Below are positions 1,371 through 60,400 of a stretch of 64,000 nt of DNA, in pieces. This DNA is from Amoebidium appalachense. Its lineage: Eukaryota > Protista > Ichthyosporea. The notes below the pieces were generated by a model that had not been told where the DNA came from, made no database searches, and was given only the letters and a program-made list of their open reading frames with translations. Numbering within the stretch: position 1 is the first letter of the stretch; every line of letters starts with the position of its first letter. Where the stretch lies: positions 22,197 to 86,196 of the forward strand of contig CAVNZM010000022.1 in assembly GCA_963693365.1 (NCBI GenBank). Direction: 5' to 3'. The position numbers and the translations under genes were made by a program.

Positions 1371-2774
1371 CTACATGGTCTTCCTGGCCTTCTTGGCTGG
1401 CTTGGTGGGGGGGGTGGCCTCCCGTTTGCGCCTTGTGCTCTTGCTGGCCTGCATGCCCTCGGCGCTGGGAGCGGCCAGGCGCTTTGCCTTCGGACCGACA
1501 TATCTTGCGAAATCTCGCAGTGTCATAGGGAGCTTCCCCTCCAGTTCCTCCCACTCGACTGAAAGGGGGTCGTCGGCCCGGACAATGTAAATGATGTTGT
1601 TTTGGTTGCGCTCAATGCCGTACGTATTAAGCCAACGGGTGTGGCCCATCGTAGTCTTGTCCTTGCTATTGTATACTAAGGGTTCGAGTTGATCGTAGTC
1701 TCTGAATGCGAAGTTGAGACGGATCTGCACGTGCGCAAAATGCACAGGTGGGGGCCACACTTTTGGGGCTGTGCGACGCTTGTCGAGAAACCCTGCAAGG
1801 AAGCGTCCTAGTGCGGGAAGACGAGAGTCGGCAAGGTGGGATGGCCAGGTAGCATGCTTGTGTTCGATGTCTGCAGCAAGGGTTGCCAGCACATAGGGAT
1901 CGCCCACTTTGCCGATTTTGGGAATGGGGTCGTCTTTTTTGCGAACAAACTCGCCGTTGTAGTGTGCACGTTCTCCCCATTCGTTTGCCTTGGGAAGCTC
2001 CCGGTCGACCCCCCACACCAACACACCCGCGTGCTTCCGAGCCTCCTTGCCACCGGACTTCTTCTTGACTGCCTCCGTGACGGACAGGAGGTTGAATTGG
2101 TCGTCGTGTGTGATGGGTGGCTCTATGGCAAGAACGTTTTTGTTCGTGTCCGAGTGGCCCTGTATGCCCGTGTCATCAGAGTCCGAGTCCGGTGTCTCCG
2201 TTCCCGTGTCCGTGTCCGTGTCCGTGATCGTGATGCACTCTGCGTCCTGTGTCAAACCGTGGTTGTTAATCTTTCCTGCGCGTTGAAGACCTTCCACCCA
2301 ATCTTTGAGGTATTGGCCACAACGCGTTTCTTTCTCGTCTTTCTCGCGGTTAGCGCGGCTGAATACGCAACCGTAGTGGAGGTAACTCTCGTGAAATTCC
2401 ACCGAAGCGATGTAGGTCTCGGCATCCCCACACGACAAGCGACCGAGGACGATGTAGGTGTCCGTCATCGCCTTGCTTAGCTCCGCGGACAAGTTCGGTG
2501 GCTGCTTGTCCGGGTGAAAAGTCTTTGCAACTCTCCTGATCCCGCCCGAGTCTAAGGCCTGGAGTTGTGCAAACTTGGTGGTGAACAGGAGTGTTGACCT
2601 GCCGGCTTCAGCGGCTATGTCTTGGATTCTGGCGGACGGCTTCATGCTTTTCAGGAACAGACGCACGTCATCTTCGAACGTTGGGGATTGGGAGGCAAGC
2701 AAACCGAAACCCCGATGGGCACACTCCGCGTCTAACTGGGTAAAATCAGGAAGGAAGCTGTCGAGGTGCGCCAT
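1371..2774 (-). CDS. Hypothetical protein with J-domain-like HPDK segment; paralogue of 3578-4771
   Basis: Long ORF (ATG of MAHLDS); GIRRVAKTFHPDK...TYIVL; C-terminal blocks RAHYNGE, GRFL, NNIIYIVRAD.PLS.EWEEL...PMTLR.F..YVGPK shared with paralogue. Confidence 0.8.
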   Translation of the reverse strand: MAHLDSFLPDFTQLDAECAHRGFGLLASQSPTFEDDVRLFLKSMKPSARIQDIAAEAGRSTLLFTTKFAQLQALDSGGIRRVAKTFHPDKQPPNLSAELSKAMTDTYIVLGRLSCGDAETYIASVEFHESYLHYGCVFSRANREKDEKETRCGQYLKDWVEGLQRAGKINNHGLTQDAECITITDTDTDTGTETPDSDSDDTGIQGHSDTNKNVLAIEPPITHDDQFNLLSVTEAVKKKSGGKEARKHAGVLVWGVDRELPKANEWGERAHYNGEFVRKKDDPIPKIGKVGDPYVLATLAADIEHKHATWPSHLADSRLPALGRFLAGFLDKRRTAPKVWPPPVHFAHVQIRLNFAFRDYDQLEPLVYNSKDKTTMGHTRWLNTYGIERNQNNIIYIVRADDPLSVEWEELEGKLPMTLRDFARYVGPKAKRLAAPSAEGMQASKSTRRKREATPPTKPAKKARKTM

Positions 2775-2830
2775 ACTGAATGATGTGTCTTTTACTTGTG
2801 TGCACTGAGGGTTTCGACCCGCGTGCCGCG

Positions 2831-3480
2831 TATATATATCGATGTACACCGCGTTGGGCGCTTCAGATATCCAATGAAAATTAAGCTTTCAACACAATAA
2901 GCCAATAGATGAAGAACACGCGACCCACCGCAACCAATCAGACCTTTGTTGAAAACCGTATGAACAAACCAAAAATAATCCCTCCGACTCCTTCCAATGG
3001 CTGGCACCTTGGCGAACTTATGATTGGCCCGTTAACCGTCAGCAAACCAATCATTTCGCGCGCAAATATCTTCACATCATGGCGGACCAATCATATTGCG
3101 ATTTCGATTATTTGATGGTGTTTTGATCCGTGAGCCGCGGAATATATATATATATCGATGTGCACCGCGTTGGGCGCTTCAGACTTGCAATGAAATTTAT
3201 GCTTCAACAATAAACCAATAGATGAAGAACACGCGACCCATGGCGACAAATCAGAGCTTCAAATTTAACCATGTGAACTAATCAAAAATAATTCCTCCGA
3301 CTCCATCCAATGGCTGGCATCTGGGCGAACTTTTGATTGGTCCGCCCGGCCGAAACCGGTTTTTAATTCAGGGCGGACCAATCGAAATAGCAAAGTGACA
3401 CGTGAACCGTCCGCGAACCAATCATTTGGCGCGAAAATATCTTTACATCATGGCGGACCAATCATATTGCAATATCGATT
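2831..3480. promoter_or_regulatory. Duplicated CCAAT-rich bidirectional promoter region (two ~310-bp diverged copies)
   Basis: tatatatatcgatgt.caccgcgttgggcgcttcaga...ccaatagatgaagaacacgcgaccca...acatcatggcggaccaatcatattgc at ~2831-3110 and ~3143-3480, between divergent genes. Confidence 0.65.
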
Positions 3481-3577
3481 TTTTGTCTTGATTTTTTGCC
3501 ATTTGAGATATATAAACAACAGACGCGGAATAAATGGATCACAACCACACAGACAATCAACCAGACGTGGAAAAAAC

Positions 3578-4771
3578 ATGGCGAACAAACTCGTTGTAGA
3601 CTACAAGAGGTTTGACCCAGATTGCATTCACCGCGGTCTGCGCTACCTCGCATCGGTGGAGGGCGACGCCGACAAGTCCGTGTCCGAGTTCATCGACAAC
3701 ACGGATTTTACCAATTTGCCCATTGCGGCGGAGGCGGCTGGCTGCTCGCCGCACCTTCTGACCAAGTGGGTTGGGTGTCTCCAGTCCGCGTCGTTGAGCG
3801 GTATCAAGAAGTTGATCGCCCGTTTCCACGCCGACAAAATCACCACTTGGGCGAGTGAGGAGGAAAAGCAGATATTCAAACGTTCCACCATCATTCTGAC
3901 ACGACTGACCGGGGTCGGTCGGAGCGACGAGTACCGCGAAAACGTAACCAAAAGCACGAGTTTTGCGCGTTTCGGATGCGTCTGCACCCGCGACTCGGAG
4001 AACTTGGAAGAAGGATCGGAGACTTCATGTGGTGCCTATTTGGATGAAATTGTCAAACAGGCAAGTCTTCTCATCGGGAACCGCGACGACGAACAAGCAG
4101 CCTCGCCGTGCCAGTCCCCAAAGCCCCGTGCCCCCCAGAAAGCCCAGCCCGCACCCAAGCCCAAGAGTACACACGGCGAAGACGGCAAACTTCTTGCCAT
4201 TGGGAACGTTCTGTGCGAGGATGAATTCTTTGGCTTGCAAGATTTAATGGTGTGGGGGATCAACTTACCGCTACCCCCTGCCGACGAGAACGGCGTCCGT
4301 GCACACTACAATGGTGAAATTTTCCGCGACAAGGGGGGGCCGATTCCATACTTCGCGTCGTGTGCACCGTATGCCCTGGCTAGCCTCGCATCAGACATGC
4401 CCGAACACCGGAAGATTGCGGCGTGGCAACCCCACCAGGTTGATGACCGCATGCCTGCCAGGGGTCGTTTCCTCCTCGGGGTTTTTCAAAACGGTAAACA
4501 TTGGGGAGCAGAGTTCGTTCATGCGTTGGGCACGTTCGAGCCTCGGTTTCGACACTACGGGCACGTGCACTTTCGTTGTCAGATCAGCAGCACCGAGGAA
4601 ATCGATTACCTCGAATGGTTGTACCAAGCCACCGGCATCAGAACTAACCGCAACAACGTTATCTACGTGGTTCGTGCCGATGGCCCCTTGTCCCCCGAAT
4701 GGGAGGAGCTCCAGTACATGATGCCGATGACCCTCCGCGCCTTTGGCGATTATGTCGGTCCCAAGTTGTAA
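3578..4771 (+). CDS. Hypothetical protein with degenerate J-like HADK segment; paralogue of 1371-2774
   Basis: ORF from MANKLVV; GIKKLIARFHADK; same conserved C-terminal domain. Confidence 0.8.
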   Translation: MANKLVVDYKRFDPDCIHRGLRYLASVEGDADKSVSEFIDNTDFTNLPIAAEAAGCSPHLLTKWVGCLQSASLSGIKKLIARFHADKITTWASEEEKQIFKRSTIILTRLTGVGRSDEYRENVTKSTSFARFGCVCTRDSENLEEGSETSCGAYLDEIVKQASLLIGNRDDEQAASPCQSPKPRAPQKAQPAPKPKSTHGEDGKLLAIGNVLCEDEFFGLQDLMVWGINLPLPPADENGVRAHYNGEIFRDKGGPIPYFASCAPYALASLASDMPEHRKIAAWQPHQVDDRMPARGRFLLGVFQNGKHWGAEFVHALGTFEPRFRHYGHVHFRCQISSTEEIDYLEWLYQATGIRTNRNNVIYVVRADGPLSPEWEELQYMMPMTLRAFGDYVGPKL

Positions 4772-7910: not shown

Positions 7911-7997
7911 GCAGGCTGTATTATAAAGTTCGATTCGGGTGTTTATTGTTTTGAGATGCCCTGTTCCATTCACGAAAAATCAGTGGCATCCACAAGC

Positions 7998-8891
7998 ATG
8001 GTGGTGTACGTCATCGACCTGTTCTGTGGCGCGGGAGGGTTCAGCGAGGGCGCGCGACAGGCGGGTGCGGTGGTGGCGGTGGCGGTCGACAGCTGGGACG
8101 TGGCGCTGGAGGTGCACCGCGCCCGCCACCCCGGGGCCGTGCACATGCTGCGCACCATAGGCGACGTGCCCGCAGAGGACTTTGCACGCGAGCTGATGGC
8201 GGCCGTGCCGGCCATGGGCGAGGGCGACTGGCTGCACGTGCACGCGAGCCCACCGTGCCAGGAGCTGTCGGAGATGCGCGCGGGCAGAGGGTGTGTGGGT
8301 GACACGTTGCGGCTGGTGAGATATACACTGGACGTGCTCGACTGCCTGCCGTACGACAGCTTCTCGATGGAGGAGGTCAACAACCCCGAGCTCAGGGCAC
8401 TACTGGACGAGGAGGGTGTGCCGTATGCGGTGCTAAACATGTTGGAGTATGGCGTGTGCCAGACACGCAGGCGTTTATTTGCATACGATGGGTGGAGCCC
8501 ATACGCCATACCCCAAACCCCCGCCCCCAACTTGCAAACCATACTCGATACTACACCCAATGCGGTGTGGCTTACGGCTTCCAGTATTTCCGAAAAGCGG
8601 ATGCGGGCATGGAGAGAGGGTCAAAAAATAGAGTGCAGTAAAACAACGCCACCACCGAAATGCAGGCCCATAACGATGAATCCATACTTCTACACGGTTA
8701 TAAAAAGCCCGTTCTATATCTGGGATGAAAACTTTGAATTGGTGCGCGCAATCAATAAGAACGAACTTGAAAAGCTCCAGACATTTCCACGCGGCTACAT
8801 CACAGCTCAAAACGTATCTTCAAAAGAAACATTAATTGCCAACGCGGTGCCGCCGGCAATGGCTCGCGCTATCATCGACACGATTTTATGA
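7998..8891 (+). CDS. DNA (cytosine-5)-methyltransferase, copy 1
   Basis: Motif I IDLFCGAGG, IV SPPCQ, VI MEEV, VIII QTRRRLF, IX ELEKLQTFP, X IANAVPP. Confidence 0.93.
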   Translation: MVVYVIDLFCGAGGFSEGARQAGAVVAVAVDSWDVALEVHRARHPGAVHMLRTIGDVPAEDFARELMAAVPAMGEGDWLHVHASPPCQELSEMRAGRGCVGDTLRLVRYTLDVLDCLPYDSFSMEEVNNPELRALLDEEGVPYAVLNMLEYGVCQTRRRLFAYDGWSPYAIPQTPAPNLQTILDTTPNAVWLTASSISEKRMRAWREGQKIECSKTTPPPKCRPITMNPYFYTVIKSPFYIWDENFELVRAINKNELEKLQTFPRGYITAQNVSSKETLIANAVPPAMARAIIDTIL

Positions 8892-8924
8892 ACCAATCGA
8901 GGGCCAAAATAGAATCCCCGCCCA

Positions 8925-9153
8925 TCACTCGTGCAACGGGCTGAGGGGATTCAGTCTCCAACCCTTGCCCTCTTTGACGATGATCACACCACCAGAAGTC
9001 TGTCTCCGCCACGAATGGCCACCCCCGCCCAAAACATGGCTGTATTTGGTCAGGTGTTGTGTCTGGGTGATCACTGCACCCTCGCGCGCCACGCCGCGCA
9101 CGTCGCCCCTGCCGTGGATGAACGCCGCGGCCAGCATGTGCAGCGTCAAGTCG
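8925..9153 (-). pseudogene. Orphan 3'-end fragment (variant allele) of the 10221-13724 gene
   Basis: LTLHMLAAAFIHGRGDVRGVAREGAVIT identical to the large ORF, then a diverged tail ending SPLHE*. Confidence 0.88.
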
Positions 9154-9203
9154 GGTGTTTATTGTTTGGATGCCCGTCCACAAAGATCAGTGGCATCCAC
9201 AAG

Positions 9204-10156
9204 ATGGTGGTACGTCATCGACTGTCTGTGGGCGGGAGGGCAGCGAGGGCGCGCGACAGGGGGTGGGTGGTGGCGGTGGCGGCGACAGCTGGGACGTGGC
9301 GCTGGAGGTGCACCGCGCCCGCCACCCCGGGGCCGTGCACATGCTGCGCACCATAGGCGACGTGCCCGCAGAGGACTTTGCACGCGAGCTGATGGCGGCC
9401 GTGCCGGCCATGGAGGCCGGCGACCACCTACACGTGCACGCGAGCCCGCCGTGCCAGGAGCTGTCTGAGATGCGCCTGGGGCTGGGGCGTGTGGGTGACA
9501 CGTTGCAGTTGGTAAGATACACATTGGACCTCCTCGATTGCGTGCCGTACGACAGCTTCTCAATCGAGGAGGTCAACAACCGCGGGTTGAGAGAGCTGTT
9601 CGCGGAGGAAGGCGTGCCGTACATTGTGCTGAACATGTGGGAGTATGGGGTATGCCAGACACGTAGGCGTTTATTTGCATATGACGGTTGGAACCCTTAC
9701 GCTATGCCCAGATCCTCGCCCCCGACGCTACTAAGCCAACTAGACCCAACCCCGCACGCTACGTGGATTACCCCCGCGAGCATTTACCCAATACGAATGC
9801 AAACATGGAGGGAGACAAGGGAGTGGGACCAATGGAAAATACAAGGACCATCGACATGGAAGTTACTATCCAAGAAAACCCAGGTGTTTCCGACATGGAA
9901 ATCGCTACCTAGCAATGCATATTTCTACACGGTCGTGCGAAGTCCGTTCTACCTATGGAACGAATGTTTCGAATATATAAGACGGATCCAAACATCTGAA
10001 TTGGAAAAAATACAGACATTCCCATCGGGGTATGTCACGGCTCGAAAGGTGTCTTCAAAAGAGAAAAAAGAAAAATTAATAGCAAATGCCGTCCCACCGG
10101 CGATGGCCCGCGGTATTATGAAAACAATTTCGGCGGAGCGGGTGCGGACAGAATAG
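9204..10156 (+). CDS. DNA (cytosine-5)-methyltransferase, copy 2 (5' end frameshifted by 1-2 bp deletions, possibly sequencing error)
   Basis: SPPCQ, IEEV, QTRRRLF, ELEKIQTFP, IANAVPP; N-terminal half near-identical to copy 1, variable region different. Confidence 0.85.
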
Positions 10157-10220
10157 TCAGAACAGGAAATACAAATTAAACACAACACAAACGTGTTCCC
10201 GCCGGCGATGACCCAAGCCG

Positions 10221-13200
10221 TCACTCGCTCTCGTTTGCAGAACCGTCGCCACCACACTGTTCGTGGGGAGGGCTGCGGGAGTTAAGATGCCACTTCCCGT
10301 CCCGCTTGACGATGACTGGCTCCCCTCCGGTCAAGTGGTAGCGCCAAGTGTGCCCACGCCCACCAACAGGGACGCGGTAATGTGCCAGGTGGTGTGGCTG
10401 GGTGATAACCGCGCCTTCGCGCGCCACGCCGCGCACGTCGCCCCTGCCGTGGATGAACGCCGCGGCCAGCATGTGCAGCGTCAAGTCGTTCTCCCCGGAT
10501 TTCGGCACGTATTCGATCCATGGCTGGTACGCCTGCATCCACTTCTTGCCGCGCGCCGCCTGTTTGCGCCACTGGAACGTCGACATGTCCACGCCCTCTT
10601 CCAGCAGCAACGACATGGCGACAAAGTCGTCCCTGAGAAGACATTGGAAAATGCGAGCGATCTCGGGACTGGGCGCCGCGCCCGCGGCGGCGCCTGCAGC
10701 CCCGCGGCGTGCACGCTTGGCCCGCCCCGGTTGCGGCCCGACCTCGGCCGCGGCCGGGGCTGGAACTTCGTGGTCCTCCGCTGCAGCACCCCGGCGCGCG
10801 CGCGTTGCCCTTCTTGGCCGCGACCCGACCCCGTCCTCCGCGGCACGCCCGCCCTTGCGCCTACGGGCCTGCTGCCCCGCGGACCCCACGGTCTTGCGGT
10901 AGCAGTCGACGATGGCGTCGCGCAGCACCGTCGGCACCGTGAACACGCCGTCCACAAGCGGCACACCGAGTGTGGCCAAGAGCGCCTCCTGGGCCTCGAG
11001 TGTGGCCGCGACCTCCATCTTGTATTCGCCGTCGTTGCACACGCGCAGGCGCCGAGCAAGGTCGTCCGGTGTGGCGGTCCATGGACGCGCGGCCTCGTCG
11101 TTCGCACCCGCGTCCACATACTGTGCGAGCGTCCCTGTGGCATCCGCGGCCTCATCCAGGGACACGAACTCAAACCCCACGACCAGGTGGCGAAGTGCGG
11201 GCAGCTTTTCCTTGATCGTCACCACGCTGGCCGTGGGCGCGCCGTTCTTGCCCGTCGGCCGCGCGAAATAGTTCTCGGCGCGGTAGTGCCACGCTTCGCT
11301 TGGCTCGATGACCAGGCGCACGACCACCGTGGCGAGCAGTTTAGCCAGCGTCTTTGTGGGCGGCGGAGGCGGGGGGAGGGCGCGTGCGTCGCTGAGGTCC
11401 ATGGACCGCACGTCGTCCTTCGTGACAAGCGGTCTGTCTGGGCGGATCCTCTTGACCATGTCGTAGCCAGGAAGGTCCTCACCGTACTCAACGCGCAGGG
11501 CACCATAGGCTCTCTTGAACGTTCTCTTCTGGAGTTCTGGTCGCGACACGCAGATATCCCCCCGGTGCATCCTGTCATTGCCGTCGACCGCCTCGAGCTG
11601 CCGACACACCGCCCCCAGACATTCGAAGTACACGGGATCGTCCGCAAGCGCTTGGCGAACGAGTTCCTCGAAGCCAACAGCCCTATCGTACAGCCTGGTG
11701 GCTTCGCCCACACGTGCCATCACCAACAGCGCGAGCTCGTGGAGCGCATGCACCGTCTCGGGCGCATAGAGTATGGGGGCTTGGGTGACCGCGGATGGGT
11801 CGGGGGCAATGGAGCACAGCCGTCCACATATCTGCGAGGCCGCTTCGAGGTGGATCGTCCTCGAGGTGGATCCCGATCCCGACCGCATCCCTGCCAAGCA
11901 AGTGAAGCCAGCATACATGCGCGTCAGCAGGCCGCGGTGCATGTTGCGCCCGCACTTGTGGGTGGGCTTGAACGTGACCCCGCATCGGGCCATGTCACCC
12001 GCTATGATGGCCACCTTGAACGGGCGGCCCATTTCGTCGGACCAACGCCAGAGGGCATCGAGCGGCATCCCGATGATCAGGAGGGGCTTGTGTTTGATAG
12101 TGAACGTGTAGGCCTCTCCGGTTTTGCTGTCCGAATCGTCATCGTCGCCACCGATGATCTTACGCTCCACATACGCCCTTGCATCGTCGTCGACGCTGAC
12201 ACTCTCCAGCACGGCGTTCGCGGCCTCCACCAGCCACTTGTACAGGTCCACGTGTGCCCTGATTTGCAGCTTGTTGTAGCGCCACAACACAACCACGAGG
12301 CCGTCGTCGACGAAGCCGGCGATGTGCCTGAAGATGGGCTCCTGCGTGGTAAGGACCTTGGTCTTGTCGGTCATGACCAGCAGTTGCTCGCACCATGTGT
12401 CGGACTCGAGCATATCGGCAATGGCCATGTTGATGCCTTCCTCGTCAACGCGCTCGGCGGTGACGCGCTCCTTGAGCATCGCGTCCAGGCGCCCCACAAC
12501 GGCCGCCAGGTACGGAATGGTCGCCTTTGCCTTAGCCGTGATTCGCCCACGTGGGTACCCCCCCTGCTCCAACACCTCGTTGACCGTCAGGTTATCATTC
12601 AGGCCAGAGACGACGACGTCGTAGAAAAGGGACTTGGCGACTGGCGCGTTGCTGAGTCGCTCAGGCGTGAACCGACGCTCGATCTCGTAGTGTGGCCGGT
12701 ACACATGCCCCGGCGCCGCGTAGCCTATGTAGGTGTCCGGCACGGGCATGTCAACGATTCGCAGGGGGAACGGGCAGCTGAGCATGGCAACAGGCGTGGC
12801 CGTCACGCCCACGCACTTGAACGCGGCCCCCGCGAAGCTCTTGAAGTCTTGCTGGGGGAGGTCCCAAAACTCTCGAGCACTGTCCCACACGCGGGCAAGC
12901 GTCGGGTTAAAATAATAAAAGAGATTCTCCCAGGCGTTCGTGTCGCCGTGGCGTCCGGTGACCGTCTCGTGGATTTCGTCCAGGATCAAAGTAGCCCGAA
13001 ACCGCCAACCCCCAAGAGAATCACGCTTGAAGCCGATCCGATTGGTCGCCGCCCCCAAATACCTCACAAAGTTGGGCACCTGTGTGTCGTTTGACAGCAG
13101 TATGCGTGCCTCGTTCAGTACCCCCCGCACCTCGTTTGGTCGGTACTTCGGGGAGGGGGGCGTGGAGCCGATGTAGAACCGCCCGGTATATGCCTCGATC

Positions 13201-13724
13201 GCTTCCACAACCCCCTCCGCGTTAACGCGGAACCATTCGGTGGGCAGGCCCCAGTCTTCGCGATGCTCGACAAGCAGCCGGGCGATGACCGTGTTGAAGG
13301 ACTTTGAGAAACTCGCCTGGAACGTGGGCCCGGCAGCCACGCCCCCACGGGTCTTGATGAGAACGGCGGGGATGCACCCGTCAATGAAGTACGAGACCCA
13401 GCACAGGAGGCAGATCTCGTACGTTTTGCCCACCTGGCACTTGCCGGACAGGATCGTGAACAGGGGGTCGTAAGGTTTCGCGTTGGGCAGCGGGGTGTTG
13501 CGGATTTGCGAAACCACCGACTTGACCGCGTAAACGGGTTCGACGCCGCTCCTCCGGATGGTGTAGTCGTGGTCCAGAAGCGCAATACACAGGCGCGCCA
13601 AAGCGGGTATATCCTCCTGCGTGAGGCCGCAGAATTGGTGCAGGGTCCGGTCGATCCTGCGCCCCACCAGGCGCTCCCAGTCCCGTTCGACATCCCGAGG
13701 AACAACGTTTCCGGGGTGGCTCAT
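10221..13724 (-). CDS. Large SF2 helicase-like ATPase of Z1-domain type
   Basis: ILSGKCQVGKT (cf. GxVQSGKT), LILDEIHE, VGVTATP, PDTYIGY, IIAGDMARCGVTF, QICGRLC in 1167 aa. Confidence 0.72.
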   Translation of the reverse strand: MSHPGNVVPRDVERDWERLVGRRIDRTLHQFCGLTQEDIPALARLCIALLDHDYTIRRSGVEPVYAVKSVVSQIRNTPLPNAKPYDPLFTILSGKCQVGKTYEICLLCWVSYFIDGCIPAVLIKTRGGVAAGPTFQASFSKSFNTVIARLLVEHREDWGLPTEWFRVNAEGVVEAIEAYTGRFYIGSTPPSPKYRPNEVRGVLNEARILLSNDTQVPNFVRYLGAATNRIGFKRDSLGGWRFRATLILDEIHETVTGRHGDTNAWENLFYYFNPTLARVWDSAREFWDLPQQDFKSFAGAAFKCVGVTATPVAMLSCPFPLRIVDMPVPDTYIGYAAPGHVYRPHYEIERRFTPERLSNAPVAKSLFYDVVVSGLNDNLTVNEVLEQGGYPRGRITAKAKATIPYLAAVVGRLDAMLKERVTAERVDEEGINMAIADMLESDTWCEQLLVMTDKTKVLTTQEPIFRHIAGFVDDGLVVVLWRYNKLQIRAHVDLYKWLVEAANAVLESVSVDDDARAYVERKIIGGDDDDSDSKTGEAYTFTIKHKPLLIIGMPLDALWRWSDEMGRPFKVAIIAGDMARCGVTFKPTHKCGRNMHRGLLTRMYAGFTCLAGMRSGSGSTSRTIHLEAASQICGRLCSIAPDPSAVTQAPILYAPETVHALHELALLVMARVGEATRLYDRAVGFEELVRQALADDPVYFECLGAVCRQLEAVDGNDRMHRGDICVSRPELQKRTFKRAYGALRVEYGEDLPGYDMVKRIRPDRPLVTKDDVRSMDLSDARALPPPPPPTKTLAKLLATVVVRLVIEPSEAWHYRAENYFARPTGKNGAPTASVVTIKEKLPALRHLVVGFEFVSLDEAADATGTLAQYVDAGANDEAARPWTATPDDLARRLRVCNDGEYKMEVAATLEAQEALLATLGVPLVDGVFTVPTVLRDAIVDCYRKTVGSAGQQARRRKGGRAAEDGVGSRPRRATRARRGAAAEDHEVPAPAAAEVGPQPGRAKRARRGAAGAAAGAAPSPEIARIFQCLLRDDFVAMSLLLEEGVDMSTFQWRKQAARGKKWMQAYQPWIEYVPKSGENDLTLHMLAAAFIHGRGDVRGVAREGAVITQPHHLAHYRVPVGGRGHTWRYHLTGGEPVIVKRDGKWHLNSRSPPHEQCGGDGSANESE

Positions 13725-13869
13725 TGTGGATCATGGATGGACAGACTGCTCGCTACTGGCTGCTTGTCAACGTTGTCGGGCTGAATACATGACTGTGAGC
13801 CGCGGTGACGCAATCAAACCCCACCCGACTGGACCACGATGACGCAATGGCCACAAAATTGAACAAAAC

Positions 13870-34133: not shown

Positions 34134-34212
34134 TGTGTGGGCTCCTATTGCCCGGTGTACTAACGATTTGAAGCTACACAGCTGGCTATTTTTGTTTTCG
34201 TGCTCGCTTATT

Positions 34213-34351
34213 AGTATTCAATTTACACACCGTGTTCTGTCATTTGGTTTCGGTGTTGGCACTAAGATATGTAATTGCACACCGACATGTGTCGACGGTT
34301 CATAGTCTTTGCTTCTGTTTGCCAGCACTGCCAAAGTTTGTATCCATCAAA
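34213..34351 (+). repeat. ~140-bp non-coding element, inverted copy of 1087-1226
   Basis: About 95% identity to the reverse complement of 1087-1226. Confidence 0.92.
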
Positions 34352-34437
34352 CATTATATATAAACTGTATCTGTATCTGTGTGTTGTTCCCCGTTCCGTG
34401 CATGCTCGATAATAGCAAGTAAAATAATGGGTTAGTC

Positions 34438-35499: not shown

Positions 35500-36962
35500 A
35501 GTCTGGTGGGACGGAAGCACGGGTTCTGTGTGGCGACCAATCGGAACGCGCGGTTGGGGCGTGGTCGTGGTGACGGGGCTGCGGTCAAGAGTAGAAGCAT
35601 CATCGAAGACCCTGTCGTGTCGGACGCGCAATCTGATTGGTGGGACGGAAACACGGGTTCTGTGTGGCGACCAATCGGAACGCGCGGTTGGGGCGTGGTC
35701 GTGGTGACGGGGCTGCGGTCAAGAGTGGCGAGCATCATCGAAGACCCTGTCGTGTCGGACGCGCAATCTGATTGGTGGGACGGAAACACGGGTTCTGTGT
35801 GGCGACCAATCGGAACGCGCGGTTGGGGCGTGGTCGTGGTGACGGGACTGCGGTCAAGAGTAGGAGCATCATCGAAGACCCTGTCGTGTCGGACGCGCAA
35901 TCTGATTGGTGGGACGGAAACACGGGTTCTGTGTGGCGACCAATCGGAACGCGCGGTTGGGGCGTGGTCGTGGTGACGGGACTGCGGTCAAGAGTAGGAG
36001 CATCATCGAAGACCCTGTCGTGTCGGACGCGCAATCTGATTGGTGGGACGGAAACACGAGTTCTGTGTGGCGACCAATCGGAACGCGCGGTTGGGGCGTG
36101 GTCGTGGTGACGGGGCTGCGGTCAAGAGTGGCGAGCATCATCGAAGACCCTGTCGTGTCGGACGCGCAATCTGATTGGTGGGACGGAAACACGGGTTCTG
36201 TGTGGCGACCAATCGGAACGCGCGGTTGGGGCGTGGTCGTGGTGACGGGACTGCGGTCAAGAGTAGGAGCATCATCGAAGACCCTGTCGTGTCGGACGCG
36301 CAATCTGATTGGTGGGACGGAAACACGGGTTTCTGAGTGGCGACCAATCGGAACGCGCGGTTGGGGCGTGGTCGTGGTGACGGGACTGCGGTCAAGAGTA
36401 GAAGCATCATCGAAGACCCTGTCGTGTCGGACGCGCAATCTGATTGGTGGGACGGAAACACGGGTTTCTGAGTGGCGACTAATCGGAACGCGCGGTTGGG
36501 GCGTGGTCGTGGTGACGGGACTGCGGTCAAGAGTAGGAGCATCATCGAAGACCCTGTCGTGTCGGACGCGCAATCTGATTGGTGGGACGGAAACACGGGT
36601 TTCTGAGTGGCGACTAATCGGAACGCGCGGTTGGGGCGTGGTCGTGGTGACGGGACTGCGGTCAAGAGTAGGAGCATCATCGAATACCCTGTCGTGTCGG
36701 ACGCGCAATCTGATTGGTGGGACGGAAACACGGGTTTCTGAGTGGCGACTAATCGGAACGCGCGGTTGGGGCGTGGTCGTGGTGACGGGACTGCGGTCAA
36801 GAGTAGGAGCATCATCGAAGACCCTGTCGTGTCGGACGCGCAATCTGATTGGTGGGACGGAAACACGGGTTTCTGAGTGGCGACTAATCGGAACGCGCGG
36901 TTGGGGCGTGGTCGTGTGGTCAAGAGTTCGAAGACCCTATCGTGTCGAACGCGCAATCTGAT
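35500..36962. repeat. Tandem array, ~11 x 134-135 bp
   Basis: tggtgggacggaaacacgggtt...gaagaccctgtcgtgtcggacgcgcaatctgat units starting ~35504, 35638, 35773 ... 36850. Confidence 0.97.
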
Positions 36963-37197
36963 GTGTGATATTTCTGTTGTTGTTTTTTTTTGTTAATTTA
37001 TCCTCCTTCTGTGATTGATGTACAACAATCTTAAACCGGGCGGTCCAATTAATGGGTGTCTCTTGATACTTTGTTTTTGTCGCTACGTTGTGTGTCTCCT
37101 GGCTATAAGAAGTGTTGCGTGTGTGTCAGTATGCTCATCCTACAGTCGCAGCTTTCTCTTCACATCTACTCTAGCTCTCAACGAGGCTGTTTTCAAC

Positions 37198-46054: not shown

Positions 46055-46116
46055 GATTGAAAAACGAGCGCGAGTTCTAGATGTGTGTAGGGAGCGTACA
46101 AAAGGGCTGCATAACC

Positions 46117-47041
46117 TGTTAAATTCTATAAGTATTTGGGATGTAAGCAGAGACACAGTGGTGCAGTGTGAAAACACCACAGACACACACAACAACAAAA
46201 CACGGAACGATCGGAGCAGTGTACACAACAGACATCAATGTTTAGACACGACTGAACTGAATTTATTCTGATCTTCGAATAAATACCTGAAATTCCTCTA
46301 AGTCCAATCCATACATGATTTCCGACCAGTCGGAAATCAGATCCATCTCTAATAGAAACCAATCACTAAGAACCAATTGCTTTCAGAGAGATCCGGTACG
46401 CGGAGGCGTACACGATAGGACACAGACACTAGTTAGGATCAACTCGTGTCATCATCAAGGAAGTTCTAACCTATGACATACTGCAAAGACTCAGACATAT
46501 CACACTTAACCTTGATGATTGGTTAAAGCCCGGCAACACATGAAAACTAAAGTGAATTAATGAAGTCTAAACACACATGCTATTCTAAGTGTAGCCTAAG
46601 TGTGTTACCGTCCAATGAACACGTATTAAGTAACACAAATCTACCTAACATATATTAGTAGAAAAGAAATACGATTATACACATGAAGACAAGGAGAGAA
46701 AGAAAAGAAAATAAGGAAGGAGAAAGAGGAAGGAAAAGAGAGCACAGATCAACAAACAAGATAGTAATAGCATAACTATAACCAGAGATATTTATGTACA
46801 CACGAACATGTACACGTCTCTCCCTGAGTGGGTGGATCCGTGTACACACATATAAATATTCTAATCGATATTACAATACACGATTAAAGCCGATACAACA
46901 CGATTACAAGTATACAAGCATATCGGAGATCGATGCTACACTTTACATAATAGGAGTGTGGCATTTACACTAAGCATATGAACTGAAACATAACACAAAC
47001 TGAGAAGATCTTACCATATGTAAATACTACGTATTACAACA
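46117..47041 (-). repeat. Copia LTR family A, complete copy (TG...CA) followed by PBS ggttatgcagccc
   Basis: tgttgtaatac...aatttaaca on minus strand; near-identical to 48405-49174 and 50279-51161. Confidence 0.88.
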
Positions 47042-48025
47042 GTGACCCCCGCCGGGCTTGTGGGGCGGCTTAAAGCCGTCAAGACCACAGCCGGGCTTGG
47101 GGTACATGGGGCAGGCCGCGCTGGGGTGGTCGGGGAAGCCACAGCGCTGACATGCGTCCTGGATGAGCAGAGTGGGTGGCAGGAGGAGATCCTGGTGGAG
47201 TTGGGCGAGCAGGTTGGGGCACTCGATCGGAGCCCGACCCTGCGGGTGGGCCACGGTGCGGGCGTATACGTCATAGTTGTGGATCTGGGCCCACGGGTAT
47301 CGGGTGCTGAGGCGAGTGATGTGCTGAGTCCAAAGTACGTCTTTGTCCGTGGGAAGGCCGAGGTGGTGCTTGGCGGCCATGTAATGGGTCCAAGCTTGGA
47401 TCCAAATGACGAGTGAACGCAGGGGAACGGGTTTGTCTTGGCGAAAAGTCTCGATGTTGCCGTCGTCGGCCATGCGCAGATGCTGACCTTTCTTGGATGG
47501 GGCCAGGAGGGCGGCGGGGGTGAACTTATACAGGTCGACGAAACGATTGGCGCGCAAATCTGCCAGCACATCCGCGGGGGGAAGCGGGAGTGTGCCCGGC
47601 TGAATGTCGCCAGTGTTCTCACCTGTGATGGGGGGCGCGGGCAGGGCAGGCAGGTCAAGGTCAGGGCCGAGATGCAGCCCCGGGGAAACCTCCCCGGGTG
47701 TGGAGGGCGCGGCGGGGGGCGCGGGAGGGTCGCGGTTGGTGAGAGCAGCCAGGACGCCAGCCATCTGGGTGCTGATGGCGGTGAGGGCGGCCAGGACGGC
47801 GTCTTGAGAAGTCATCTGCGGGGACGGCGGGGCCTGAGGGGGGACTTCAGGAGTGGAGGGGGAGAGTAGCCGGCGGGTCCGGGTCCGTGGTGGTATGGGC
47901 CGCTGGAGGCGCGTCAGTGTCCGCGGGAGCGTTGGTCAGCCTGTGGCGGAGGTGGCTGCGGGTCAGGCGCTTAGGTGCCGTGGCAGGGGCGGCGGCTGAG
48001 GCCTGGCGCTTTTTCGGCGGCATGC
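47042..48025 (-). pseudogene. DIRS/Ngaro-like gag ORF, disrupted
   Basis: WIQAWTHY...L...HI.RL...YPW..I..YD..AR pattern and CxxC.FPDH....C knuckle; Pro-rich N-terminus. Confidence 0.65.
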
Positions 48026-48404
48026 TGACCGGCGTAGGGAAAGATAGCGAGAATGAAAAGGAATATATAGCTGTAAGGCTGTGGATGCTAAACACAGAAG
48101 ATGTGTTTGTAGCTTGCTGATCTGCTAAAAACTGTCGTGCTTATATTATACCTAAGCCTACCGATCTGAGCCAATCAAAAATCGATCTAGTGATATGTGA
48201 AATCTGATCCGAGCCAATCATAACTCGGTCTAGTGATCTGTGGTATCTGATGTTTTGACTGGCTAATAGGTGCCCGTGTGCGGGCAGCCAACCGCTAACT
48301 GCTAAAACACGAAATGAAGCCTACATGGTTATGTTGGATAGAACACCCATCCTACGTGTTTACCCAGAAAAATATTTATGTCAATAATTTCCACAAATAA
48401 AACC

Positions 48405-49174
48405 TAATCGTGTGTTGTAATATCGATTAGAATATTTATATGTGTGTACACGGATCCACCCACTCAGGGAGAGACGTGTACATGTTCGTGTGTACATAAA
48501 TATCTCTGGTTATAGTTATGCTATTGCTATCTTGTTTGTTGATCTGTGCTCTCTTTTCCTTCCTCTTTCTCCTTCCTTATTTTCTTTTCTTTCTCTGTTT
48601 GTCTTCATGTGTATAATCGTATTTCTTTTCTACTAATATATGTTAGGTAGATTTGTGTTACTTAATACGTGTTCATTGGACGGTAACACACTTAGGCTAC
48701 ACTTAGAATAGCATGTGTGTTTAGACTTCATTAATTTACTTTAGTTTTCATGTGTTGCCGGGCTTTAACCAATCATCAAGGTTAAGTGTGATATGTCTGA
48801 GTCTTTGCAGTATGTCATAGGTTAGAACTTCCTTGATGATGACACGAGTTGATCTTAACTAGTGTCTGTGTCCTATCGTGTGCGTCTCCGCGTACCGGAT
48901 CTCTCTGAAAGCAATTGGTTCTTAGTGATTGGTTTCTATTAGAGATAGATCTGATTTCCGACTGGTCGGAAATCATGTATGGATTGGACTTAGAGGAATT
49001 TCAGGTATTTATTCGAAGATCAGAATAAATTCAGTTCAGTCGTGTCTAAACATTGATGTCTGTTGTGTACACTGCTCCGATCGTTCCGTGTTTTGTTGTT
49101 GTGTGTGTCTGTGGTGTTTTCACACTGCACCACTGTGTCTCTGCTTACATCCCAAATACTTATATAATTTAACA
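48405..49174 (+). repeat. Copia LTR family A, inverted, 5'-truncated copy
   Basis: Reverse complement of ~46117-46887; ends aatttaaca. Confidence 0.88.
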
Positions 49175-50278
49175 GTCGGAGGACCATCTGCCGAGTTGTT
49201 TGATCCGGGAGTTGTCGACCCCGGCCTCAGCCAGGGCTGTGGCCCCCCCGATTCGGAGGCTGTGGCCGGCAAACCGGGAGGGTGAGAGGCCTGCCCGGGA
49301 GAGAAGAGCACGGAAGTCGGCAGAGAAAGCACCCTTGGTGTAGGGAATGCCACCGAGACTGAAAAGGGGGTCGTCGGGTTGACCGGACGTTGTATCCAGG
49401 AACTGCCGGAGGAGATGGGCTGGGGAGAAGTGGGTGAGGGGCAGGGCAGCGAGAGTGACGTTGACACCTTCGGCCTGTACATCCGTCTTCAGGAGGTTGG
49501 CAGGTGGAGGGTGGCATGGGACAAAGTACCGGAGGGGGTGTAGCTGAAGGTCACGTCCTTCCTTTTAACGTGACGGCGACGGGTCGAAGGAAGTCAGGGT
49601 CTTGGAGGTAAATTCCCCCGAACGAAGGAGACCACAAAAACCGACGATGAGGACCGTCCATAGCCGGAGATTGGCCGAGGAGGCCTGGGTGGGGCACTGG
49701 CCATGGAGTAGGCTGAGGTGGGAGGGCAGGAGGGGCTCCCTGGTAGATGATCGGGGCCGGATGTTGTGAGAAAGCTGCCATCTGCCCACCCCTCGTAGGA
49801 ACCAGGCCAGAGACTTGTCGTGGGGGTAGGGAGCAGGGAGGCCCATGTCGAGGTGGAGTCTGGTGATGGCCGAATTGTAGCCGGCCAAGGAAGAGGCCTG
49901 TACCCCTCGTTGGGCACACCAGGCGAGAAAGAGCTGCACGGTGTGTGGGGAGGCCGGGAGGTAGGACCCGGAGGAGGACTGCAGCCGAGATGGCACACAA
50001 AAATCGATGAACACTTTTTGCACCCGGGAGTAAAAGGCCCGAGAGTCGAGGTTGAGACTCAGGGCCTGGCATTCCTGCAGGGTAGTGGTGGCTCGAAGCA
50101 GCTCGGCCTGAGCAACGTGGGGGGCCAATCTGCCGGCGTTGCTCCGGAAGGGGAGATCTTTGGGGGGGGGGGGGGGGGGGTTAGCCCAGGCCCTGATAGG
50201 ATAGGAACTCGTGGACCCAGGAGGGGAAGGGGCAGGGCTCCGGTTGCAGGGAAGGTCGGAGTCGTCGGGCTCGGGGAA
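49175..50278 (-). pseudogene. DIRS/Ngaro-type tyrosine recombinase, frameshifted and truncated
   Basis: FLAW...G...SSL..Y.SAI..LH, GFCGLLRSGEF, LKTDVQAEG, GHSLRIGGAT, LGRWSSD. Confidence 0.85.
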
Positions 50279-51161
50279 GTGGTGCAGTGTGAAAACACCA
50301 CAGACACACACAACAACAAAACACGGAACGATCGGAGCAGTGTACACAACAGACATCAATGTTTAGACACGACTAAACTGAATTTATTCTGATCTTCGAA
50401 TAAATACCTGAAATTCCTCTAAGTCCAATCCATACATGATTTCCGACCAGTCGGAAATCAGATCTATCTCTAATAGAAACCAATCACTAAGAACCAATTG
50501 CTTTCAGAGAGATCCGGTACGCGGAGACGTACTGATAGGACACAGACACTAGTTAAGATCAACTCGTGTCATCATCAAGGAAGTTCTAACCTATGACATA
50601 CTGCAAAGACTCAGACATATCACACTTAACCTTGATGATTGGTTAAAGCCCGGCAACACATGAAAACTAAAGTAAATTAATGAAGTCTAAACACACATGC
50701 TATTCTAAGTGTAGCCTAAGTGTGTTACCGTCCAATGAACACGTATTAAGTAACACAAATCTACCTAACATATATTAGTAGAAAAGAAATACGATTATAC
50801 ACATGAAGACAAAGAGAGAAAGAAAAGAAAATAAGGAAGGAGAAAGAGGAAGGAAAAGAGAGCACAGATCAACAAACAAGATAGCAATAGCATAACTATA
50901 ACCAGAGATATTTATGTACACACGAACATGTACACGTCTCTCCCTGAGTGGGTGGATCCGTGTACACACATATAAATATTCTAATCGATATTACAATACA
51001 CGATTAGAGCCGATACAACACGATTACAAGTATACAAGCATATCGGAGATCGATGCTTCATTTTACATAATAGGAGTGTGGCATTTACACTAAGCAAATG
51101 AACTGAAACATAACACAAACTGAGAAGATCTTACCATATGTAAATACTACGTATTACAACA
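50279..51161 (-). repeat. Copia LTR family A, 3'-truncated copy
   Basis: Near-identical to 46158-47041; lacks last ~40 bp. Confidence 0.88.
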
Positions 51162-56815: not shown

Positions 56816-57285
56816 GTACGAATCGTCCCTCCCCCTCCCCCCTCTCCCCTCCCCAGGCTCCACCGCTTCTCTCTTGCAACCATTAGATCCAATTTCTCTC
56901 AGTTAATGAAACTGGAGGTAAGCAACTTGCACACGCGCTGTTGTCTTGTTATTAGTTTAATGAAACGGGAGATAAGCAGCTTGCACACGCGCCTGTCGTC
57001 TTGTTATAGGGTTATTTCGCAACTCTGTCGTTGCATTGATGGCTGACACACACACACACCCACACGCACAAACACACACACCCACGCACACACACACACA
57101 CACACACACGCATGCACACACACGCACGCACGCACACACCCACACACGCGCGCGCGCGTGCACACACACACACGCACGCACGCACGCACGCAAGCACACA
57201 CACACACACACGCGCGCGCGCGAATGGGCACATACACACACACACACACACGTGCACACACACACGCACGCACGCTCACATACAC

Positions 57286-58537: not shown

Positions 58538-60400
58538 TCAGTCACGAAGACTGAGTGAATCACGGTGTTGCTCGTGGGAGGGCCCGGGCAGGGGCTTGGT
58601 GAAGATGTCAGCCACGTTGTCTTTGCTGGACACGTAGGTGACGACCACATCCCCACTCTTGATGTAGTCCTTCGTGTTGTGGTAACGGACTGCAATGTGT
58701 TTGGTCCGGTGCTTGATGCTGTTGGTGTGCAGGAGGGCAATGGTGGACTGGTTGTCACAGTAGACGGGGGTGGGGTCGGTCATCGGGTAGCCGAGTTCAC
58801 GGAGGAGATCACGGTGCCAGATGACGTTTTGAACAGCAGCATTGATGGCCAGAAGCTCAGCCTCGGTGGTGGATGTTGCCGTGATGGACTGCAGCTTCGA
58901 ATACCATGTGATGGGTATGCCCTTGAAGAAGATGACGTATCCGGTGGTTGAACGACGGGTGTTGGGGCAGTTGGCAAAGTCAGCATCAGAATAACACTCC
59001 AGCAAGGGGGTGTTGTCGTCGGAAGCAGACTTGTCGTAGTGAAGGCCGAGGTTGGAAGTGCCGATGAGGTACCGAACTACACGGAGTAGACATTCCCATG
59101 CAAGTTTGGTGGGGTTGGCACTGAATCTACCGAGGTAGCCGATGGCAAAGGAGATGTCGGGCCGGGAACAACGAGCAACCCACAAAAGACGGCCGAGTAG
59201 TTCACGGTAGGGAACCTTGATGGGTGGTGAGTCGTTCTCGTTGATGGTGATGACGGTGCCGACGGGAATGGGAGTAGCCTTGGGGTGAGCATCGTTGAGG
59301 TTGAAGTCTCTGACGATGTCGTTGATGTAGGATTGCTGAAGCAGCTTGAGGTGACCGGGGGTGTGGATGAGCTGGGTGCCAAGGAAGATGTCGGGAAGGT
59401 CAACCTTGCAGAGAACTGACTTCATGATGTGGTCTACTAGATCCTTGGTGTGGGAGGAGTTGGCCGTGCAGATGATGATGACGTCGTCCACATAGTTGCC
59501 AGTGAGGATGATGTCACCGTTGGGGAAGGTCTTGATGTAGACACATGGATCTGAACGGAGACGTTCGAGACCGTGAGCAAGGAGGACCTTGTCGAAGTAC
59601 TCATACCAGGCCAGTGATGCTTGCTTGAGCCCGTAGAGTGCCTTCTTAAGTTTCCAGACCTTGTGTTCGTTGCCGGGGGTGATGAAGCCAGGTGGTGGCT
59701 CAATGGAGATGTCTTCTTGAAGAGGACTGTTGAGGAAGGCAGTTGAGACGTCGAGTTGATGAATCTCATGGTTGCCGTCCACACCGATGGCAAGGAGGGC
59801 ACGGACGGAGGAGGACATCACCACGGGGGAAGAGGTGTCACCGTAGTCAACACCGTAGACTTGAGTGAAGCCCTTTGCAACACCACGAGCTTTGATCTTG
59901 GTGTCACCGGCTGAGTTGAGGACTTTCTCAGTCACAATCCACTTGAACTTGATGATGTTGGCACCAGGGGGGGGATCAACAATGGTGAAGACATCCTTGG
60001 TGATGAAGGCTTGGTACTCGGAGGTGAGGGCAGCTATGACGGCATCACCGTTGGGACCGTTGCAAAGCTTTTGAATGCCCTTGGGGAGCTGGTCAATGTT
60101 GATGGTCGGTGCTACGATGCTGACCAGTGCCGTTGGAGTCTTGGTGAGACGTGTAGACCGACGAAGGTTGGGCTTGGGGGGGTCCTTGAGGGGGGTGGTG
60201 GCCGGGTAGGTGGTGGAGGCCGGGATAGGGGCATGGAAGCCAGGAATAGGACCGGTGGTGAGGGGGGCATCGGTGTCCACAGGGCTGCTCGTGGCCGAGT
60301 GGAAGGTGGGGGACCCAGGACGAACCGGAGTCATGTAGCCGGGTTGATGCACAGCAACGGGGGGGGCCGGCAGCAAGGGTTGTTGGTCAGTGGGGGGGGG
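58538..60400 (-). CDS. Copia pol 3' part: reverse transcriptase and RNase H
   Basis: KARGVAKGFTQ..GVDY, QLDVSTAFLN, KALYGLKQA, YVDD, SRPDI, YSDAD, STTEAE, ADIFTKPL. Confidence 0.95.
   Translation of the reverse strand, partial: PPPTDQQPLLPAPPVAVHQPGYMTPVRPGSPTFHSATSSPVDTDAPLTTGPIPGFHAPIPASTTYPATTPLKDPPKPNLRRSTRLTKTPTALVSIVAPTINIDQLPKGIQKLCNGPNGDAVIAALTSEYQAFITKDVFTIVDPPPGANIIKFKWIVTEKVLNSAGDTKIKARGVAKGFTQVYGVDYGDTSSPVVMSSSVRALLAIGVDGNHEIHQLDVSTAFLNSPLQEDISIEPPPGFITPGNEHKVWKLKKALYGLKQASLAWYEYFDKVLLAHGLERLRSDPCVYIKTFPNGDIILTGNYVDDVIIICTANSSHTKDLVDHIMKSVLCKVDLPDIFLGTQLIHTPGHLKLLQQSYINDIVRDFNLNDAHPKATPIPVGTVITINENDSPPIKVPYRELLGRLLWVARCSRPDISFAIGYLGRFSANPTKLAWECLLRVVRYLIGTSNLGLHYDKSASDDNTPLLECYSDADFANCPNTRRSTTGYVIFFKGIPITWYSKLQSITATSTTEAELLAINAAVQNVIWHRDLLRELGYPMTDPTPVYCDNQSTIALLHTNSIKHRTKHIAVRYHNTKDYIKSGDVVVTYVSSKDNVADIFTKPLPGPSHEQHRDSLSLRD

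Follow-up and report, generated by a model that had tools for sequence, protein, structure and literature searches.

In a 64,000-nt stretch of the Amoebidium appalachense assembly GCA_963693365.1 (contig CAVNZM010000022.1, positions 22,197 to 86,196; hereafter the window), a C5 cytosine methyltransferase (methylase) gene and a gene for a 1167-residue superfamily 2 (SF2) ATPase, here called the motor, are convergent with their 3′ ends facing each other, and the two ends vary together as one block. Methylase type is physically linked to the type of the motor tail in three cases, namely types A and B, which the window holds in tandem, and a third type that occurs in public read contigs. Within the block, protein divergence peaks at the variable region of the methylase and at the motor tail. 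On balance, we lean with modest confidence towards the reading that the methylase would mark self, that the tail would read the same motif, and that a single recombination event would change both specificities.

The duplication of a unit made of the methylase gene and the opposing 3′ end of the motor gene, proposed in a preliminary description of this DNA, is borne out, as the unit runs from 7935 to 9153 and again from 9151 to 10488 with the trinucleotide TCG common to both (Table 1). This TCG microhomology is present as described, but three nucleotides alone are a weak sign, to be met by chance in roughly 1 of 15–20 joins by our estimate. Gaps aside, 7935–8217 and the 72 bp of 9082–9153 are identical between the copies, and identity drops sharply at 8217 and 9082, from 100% to 75–87%. 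Between the shared blocks, the copies differ by 15–45%, and DNA identity ranges from 57 to 90% per 60 alignment columns with many gaps. The exchanged block of ~865 bp comprises the C-terminal three quarters of the methylase and the last ~50 motor codons, and it is AT-richer than its surroundings, as had been noted, with a GC content of 0.44–0.45 versus 0.63–0.73 in the flanks. The near-identity claimed for the outer parts applies to the 72-bp block, a perfect repeat, but not to the whole N-terminal half of the methylase, in which identity stops at 8217, at about residue 74. Likewise, divergence is not limited to the region between methylase motifs VIII and IX, since motifs IV, VI and VIII already lie in DNA of 75–87% identity with a proportion of synonymous differences (pS) of 0.16–0.61. 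Divergence is also not uniform. In particular, amino acid identity between the methylases over successive 30-codon segments is 100, 90, 80, 73, 73, 50, 43, 60 and 74%, so that the variable region is lowest with 43–60%, against 73–90% around it. The type B methylase additionally carries a 13-residue insertion within this region, and the orphan tail A is 68% identical to the tail of the full motor gene.

Table 1. Positions of the features of the locus and its surroundings (window coordinates; motor motifs in residues).
Feature	Position	Strand	Remarks
AT-rich stretch 5′ of methylase	7917–7928	+	read from the sequence; outside the duplicated unit, copy 2 without it
Left shared block	7935–8217, repeated 9151–9413	+	~280 bp; perfect 131-bp run 8087–8217
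C5 cytosine methyltransferase type A, intact	7956–8891	+	Pfam PF00145; likely start ATG 7998
Methylase A motifs	I 8022, IV 8247, VI 8370, VIII 8460, IX 8775, X 8841	+	
Variable block type A	8218–9081		methylase residues ~75–297, intergenic gap, variable part of motor tail
Orphan motor tail type A	8925–9153	-	75 open codons and stop; no start, no motor body
Right shared block	9082–9153 = 10417–10488		72 bp, perfect; encodes LTLHMLAAAFIHGRGDVRGVARE
Tandem join	9151–9153		TCG microhomology; X1 contig 9124–9203, depth 4
Copy 2 5′ end	9151–9290	+	20 deleted bases as assembled
C5 methyltransferase type B	9204–10156	+	motif I frameshifted as assembled; in frame from 9284
Variable block type B	9414–10416		unbroken 1064-nt contig in X4
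1167-residue SF2 helicase-like ATPase (motor)	10221–13724	-	Z1-like N-terminal half
C-terminal tail domain type B	10257–10487	-	homologous to P0121 tail, 43% over 81 residues
Motor motifs	I 94, II 250, III 308, Y-motif 332, V 575, VI 631		I GKCQVGKT; II DEIH; III TATP; VI QICGR
DUF5906, YqaJ, T5orf172, zf-MYND, patatin, Fic genes	14–29 kb		Pfam
Copia-type element	58.5–62.9 kb (58538–62903)		integrase and reverse transcriptase

Between types, nonsynonymous and synonymous divergence of the methylase (dN and dS) amount to 0.20 and 0.86, a dN/dS of ~0.23, whereas in the tail 22 of the 50 codons beyond the shared block alter the residue, with a proportion of nonsynonymous differences (pN) of 0.30 and a pS of 0.64. 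These values argue that both halves of the block are old, coding and maintained, and, judged from such substitution patterns, both are under purifying selection. The 12 most changed tail codons reach a pN of 0.42 and a pS of 0.40, a set chosen after viewing the alignment and too small to test. The preserved frames reported earlier hold for both tails, each in frame with its own stop, but not for the methylase of copy 2 as assembled, in which motif I is frameshifted.

Contigs from public sequencing runs, 16 of the 24 listed runs holding at least half of the sampled words, contain at least four block types. In X4, a run from another sample, methylase A leads into tail A on one unbroken contig of 924 nt and methylase B into tail B on another of 1064 nt, which supports the view that the 3′ ends of the two genes vary as a unit. 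Additionally, type A is found on an 828-nt contig in X2 with 0 differences. Within a type, the window and X4 differ by less than 1% (5/924 letters for A and 3/1064 for B); the types are thus more than 99% conserved yet mutually far apart, from which we infer long-kept alleles that are exchanged via the conserved flanks. The X4 graph forms a simple bubble, with depths of 356–393 in the upstream and shared methylase start, 190 in block A, 161 in block B and 337 in the motor contig, which is unbranched over the join point. These depths and the unbranched motor contig fit, but do not prove, single cassettes A and B as alternatives on a common motor body, each on a full motor.

In X1, four tail types are present, consisting of the window's A and B (loose end 9051) and two that depart at 9048 and 9077. 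One X1 contig joins a methylase departing at 8386 to the 9077 tail, a joint (8386–9077) found in one of four runs. For a methylase type in which 9691–10085 is replaced, X1 and X2 contain the joint itself, and X8 has loose ends at both of these positions. The points at which the types leave the shared sequence all fall within 35 bp (9048–9082), inside the motor gene and just ahead of its variable part. In X1 and X11, the 9048 type is attached to two differently diverged flanks, one with 0–1 and the other with 10 differences, which is a sign of exchange. A variant of type B in X2 and X8, with its tail unchanged, differs at the places listed by 5 synonymous and 3 non-synonymous codons, none of which alters the YTVVRSPF stretch. 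As a separate observation, the more diverged motor allele of X1 and X11 (10 differences in 106 bp over 9048–9153) continues into other sequence past 9153 at a depth of 2–2.6, which suggests another insert, from a related virus.

The tandem arrangement in the window is, with high probability, real. A 101-nt contig of X1 with a depth of 4 covers 9124–9203 with 0 mismatches and has letters at the window's gaps (80% likeness). The first letter of the X1 motor contig, 10459, precedes the branch point by exactly 30 bp, and in X5 the depth sums, by arithmetic only, call for a similar join contig with a depth of 4.8. Of the exits from the 72-bp block, roughly one quarter to one third lead across the join, and most probably the tandem is a genuine rearrangement, present in a minority, by which a second cassette came to lie beside the first. 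These three signals from X1 and X5 speak against a chimeric assembly, in which alleles of two inserts would have been fused and single cassettes alone would exist, a reading that we consider improbable. Consistent with a chimera are the deletion-only errors over the 140 bp after the join, the fit of X4 to single cassettes, and the properties of the join contig itself, which is seen in one of the four runs of one sample and is absent among the contigs listed for X6 and X11. Its short side has 30 letters, one under the 31-letter bridging rule, although a 30-letter overhang would be expected of a branch under a 31-letter assembly word. Because X1, X5, X6 and X11 are one sample, perhaps the source of the window, the join contig checks the assembly and does not represent a second isolate. 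Zero depth at 9134–9264, considered as a sign of an artefact, was rejected as such, since the X1 join contig is also unplaced at the 92% threshold.

The first 156 alignment columns of copy 2 contain 20 deleted bases, 0 insertions and 4 substitutions, which break motif I. As contigs have letters at the window's gaps, in three of four runs at 9156–9203 and in four of four at 9241–9290, the frameshifts at the 5′ end of copy 2 are probably consensus or assembly errors. At position 10152, all four runs (X1, X2, X4 and X8) have one extra base, so that a further assembly error probably affects the final codons of the window's methylase B.

Both methylases match Pfam PF00145 (E values 1e-20 and 8e-11; 74.7 bits versus a cut-off of 22), and the C5 methylase motifs I (FxGxGG), IV (PCQ), VI (E), VIII (QxRxR), IX and X follow in order. 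The types are presumed to differ in target motif. The motor was aligned with 10 of its 12 HMMER hits, giving 11 members; P0122 was left out as a repetitive false match and P0132 as a partial relative of P0130. The glutamine form of Walker A, GxxQxGK[TS], is present as GKCQVGKT, with G, Q and K invariant in 11/11 members, and Walker B (DEIH, compared with DDE[AGS]D in Z1 proteins), motif III (TATP) and the Y-motif (TYIGY) are aligned by HHalign. Specifically, the N-terminal half resembles Z1 motors with an HHalign probability of 96% (E 4e-9), and with its profile all nine Z1 proteins outrank the eight other SF2 proteins listed, which are largely redundant. On the other hand, motif VI reads QxxGR in 10 of the 11 family members and QxxSR in one, distinct from QxxR in 9/9 Z1 proteins. 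The C-core profile matches Z1 weakly (E 0.2), no H/H motif was located, one of 30 atlas matches of the motor is a Z1 cluster, and no Pfam (Z1 included, at E 10), PADLOC or NCBIfam family matches the motor. The designation as a Z1 helicase is thus supported by the N-terminal half but not by a Pfam match or motif VI, and on present evidence the motor probably works like a Z1-type motor, yet should not be filed as Z1.

Among 1.84 billion representative proteins, HMMER returned 12 matches to the motor, one of which, P0121 (40%), is a full-length orthologue. P0121 lies on the same 183,011-bp contig, labelled Daphnia sinensis, as the closest methylase, P0001 (55%), and their accessions are consecutive (KAI9549678-9). 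The viral-type methylase family is often present several times on contigs of equal length, namely three times each at 56,975 and 18,906 bp, twice each at 69,832, 183,011 and 998,920 bp and four times at 2,105,467 bp, which suggests that stockpiling is common. At prokaryote-type Z1 loci in viral_contigs, a C5 methylase lies within 5 kb in 34/58 cases, and one directly abuts in convergent orientation in 1/58 (L310:4899-8235, a provirus-type record). No motor locus was found in viral_contigs or metagenome_contigs; word-index protein searches with the motor were empty, and sequence searches of the PDB gave nothing credible. Locus searches based on the methylase returned mostly prokaryote-type enzymes, with no motor relative beside them below E 0.6. 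In the literature, we found no paper on the methylase–motor pair or on Z1 or DEAD-Z1 proteins in giant viruses or Nucleocytoviricota.

We propose that the methylase would mark one DNA motif as self and that the motor tail, which is presumed to bind DNA and predicted to read the same motif, would direct the motor to unmarked DNA of a competing virus or host, where it might translocate, form a block or bring in an unlinked nuclease. Exchange through the conserved flanks would then swap the specificities of methylase and tail together. In the tandem, methylase A and its orphan tail A come first, and methylase B, paired with the full motor, second. Recombination between the left blocks would retain B only, and recombination between the 72-bp blocks would put A on the full motor; these resolved single-cassette states are the two that X4 appears to show. 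The earlier idea of a locus switchable by flank recombination holds insofar as the tandem geometry resolves into either matched pair, but because the repeats are direct, each event would be a one-way loss of a cassette and not a reversible switch. Similarly, copy 1 corresponds to a stored cassette in its motor tail, which alone is an orphan, but not in its methylase, which is complete and has its native upstream region.

Besides the limits of the join contig, several observations weigh against this mechanism. As diverged blocks suppress internal crossovers, co-variation is possible without functional coupling; selection could be confined to the methylase or be absent from both genes, with the motor 3′ end hitchhiking between homogenised flanks and the tandem arising as a chance duplication in a silenced insert. 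In favour of such linkage, dN/dS stays below 1 throughout and never exceeds 1 across any whole region, the catalytic motifs IV–X have diverged too, and the methylase family is often present several times per contig. The tail is found in one of the 10 aligned motor relatives, the other nine, from which it is missing, having no demonstrated methylase link. Copy 2 is without the upstream AT-rich stretch, a possible promoter by its composition, so that the tandem may be a dead end. We nevertheless regard linkage without coupling as unlikely, though by no means negligible, because the breakpoints of all four types fall in one 35-bp interval of the motor gene, the two genes are neighbours in the 40%/55% relative, and the nearest characterised kin of the motor act with C5 methylases, as described in the part of PMC5861437 drawn on here. 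The same part places the sequence reader of CglI on a separate R subunit and not on the motor. The adjacency of P0121 and P0001 is one of accession order; contig depth is no copy number; and the link between methylase D and tail D is inferential, the two lying on no single contig among those listed. For the tail, AlphaFold models are of low confidence (predicted local distance difference test values of 35 and 39), and Foldseek matched nothing, an uninformative result. A winged-helix fold of the tail was not supported, as Mrr_N (PF14338) and HARE-HTH (PF05066) scored 8.0 and 8.9 with a tail profile of three sequences, below the medians of 9.2 and 9.1 for shuffled nulls, while Mrr_N versus HARE-HTH scored 22.

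A further point against the proposed mechanism is that Pfam, PADLOC and NCBIfam recognised no nuclease domain in the motor or adjacent genes, a remote fold being beyond their reach. The view of the locus as restriction-modification-like accordingly stands for the methylase–motor pair but not for a linked nuclease. This null result, together with the combination of an N-terminal motor and a small variable C-terminal domain, would also suit a role in control of the virus's own DNA, with the motor as an ATPase that binds origins or promoters sequence-specifically, methylation by the partner as the signal that licenses or blocks its site, and the types behaving like incompatibility groups between co-infecting genomes. 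The herpesvirus origin-binding protein UL9, an SF2 motor with a C-terminal DNA-binding domain, offers an analogy. Such a role appears improbable, as the motor resembles restriction-type Z1 proteins and an essential replication function should give far more relatives than 12 in 1.84 billion.

The first ~34 kb of the window are dense in genes, including DUF5906, YqaJ, T5orf172, zf-MYND, patatin, Fic and AAA genes, and the right side contains simple repeats and a copia-type retrotransposon. The atlas clusters closest to the motor are 87–100% viral, with Nucleocytoviricota commonest. Intron-poor viral-type genes thus lie within a eukaryote repeat context, as in a giant endogenous viral element, and by its gene content the window is likely a giant-virus insert within a eukaryote genome. 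None of the core markers capsid, PolB, A32 and VLTF3 was found in the 29 window open reading frames (ORFs) scanned. The nearest published counterpart is the set of giant endogenous viral elements in the protist Amoebidium; of its 18 DNA methyltransferases (DNMTs), 10 lie in such inserts, and their targets are stated as unknown in the portion of PMC11244446 available.

Further features of the window were noted. An inverted repeat of ~180 bp (1084–1266 and 34173–34354, 33 kb apart) flanks the gene-dense region and possibly represents element ends or a duplicated regulatory stretch. Tandem arrays are present at 35504–36967 (11 copies of a 134–135-bp unit) and at 140–965 (a 49/56-bp array), and the stretches 46116–51007 and 58538–62903 comprise long near-perfect inverted repeats around retrotransposon-like ORFs and the copia-type element. 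The ORFs 1371–2849 (-) and 3395–4771 (+) are divergent and look paralogous by eye, with an HYNGEF stretch in both; neither has a Pfam or PADLOC match. The single AAAATTGA of the whole window, which we take to be the early-promoter motif of mimiviruses, lies at 13855–13862 on the + strand, in the gap that separates the start of the motor from the zf-MYND gene.

Returning to the proposed coupling of methylase and tail, its wider form is more tentative and, in our estimate, possible but short of probable: a nuclease-free, two-gene self/non-self system in eukaryotic giant viruses, built on a tail-to-tail block with stockpiled orphan blocks and several specificities per host genome. The locus would give endogenous giant-virus cytosine methylases a partner and a rule, with one matching motor tail expected for each methylase type. 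Should this rule hold, eukaryotic viruses would run a specificity-switching conflict system built unlike bacterial restriction, and the matched pairs that occur naturally within one genome would reveal how reader and writer change target together. The locus offers allele-level variation across samples, with tandem and single-cassette states both.

Compared with known systems, the pair shares with the DEAD-Z1 (PF10593) systems CglI and NgoAVII, as far as the text of PMC5861437 used here describes them, a C5 methylase beside an SF2 motor, a glutamine-type Walker A, TATP and a Y-motif. It differs from them in motif VI (QxxR there, QxxGR here), in having no Pfam Z1 match, and in having no nearby counterpart of their PLD-B3 R subunit; moreover, here two genes lie tail to tail, the variable tail is on the motor itself, and the setting is a eukaryotic virus. 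Chlorovirus and marseillevirus Type II restriction-modification systems likewise combine a methylase with a partner gene and are proposed to serve in co-infection, but that partner is a simple endonuclease, and the portion of PMC7253447 at hand describes no ATPase motor or swappable block. The DNMTs of Amoebidium viral inserts also lie in intron-poor inserts within a transposon-rich eukaryote genome; the main text of PMC11244446, in the part available, mentions no helicase partner, and its supplements may show these genes. Type I restriction-modification loci with duplicated hsdS likewise keep alternative specificity modules between conserved repeats, yet in those loci both activities rely on a single S subunit, and the repeats, being inverted, make the exchange reversible (PMC7394358, in part), whereas here two genes are involved and direct repeats allow loss only. 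In the orphan CdiA-CT/CdiI and Rhs-CT/RhsI modules, as the accessible part of PMC3150448 presents them, a start-less tip with a complete partner gene similarly lies beside a full-length gene, and in our case the orphan tip type A is apparently fused to a full-length motor body in another sample (X4). Their partner is an immunity protein, whereas here it is a DNA methylase, and toxicity of the motor is no more than an analogy. By this analogy, and within the parts of the two sources used, the tandem appears to resemble orphan toxin–immunity modules (PMC3150448) more than invertible hsdS loci (PMC7394358).

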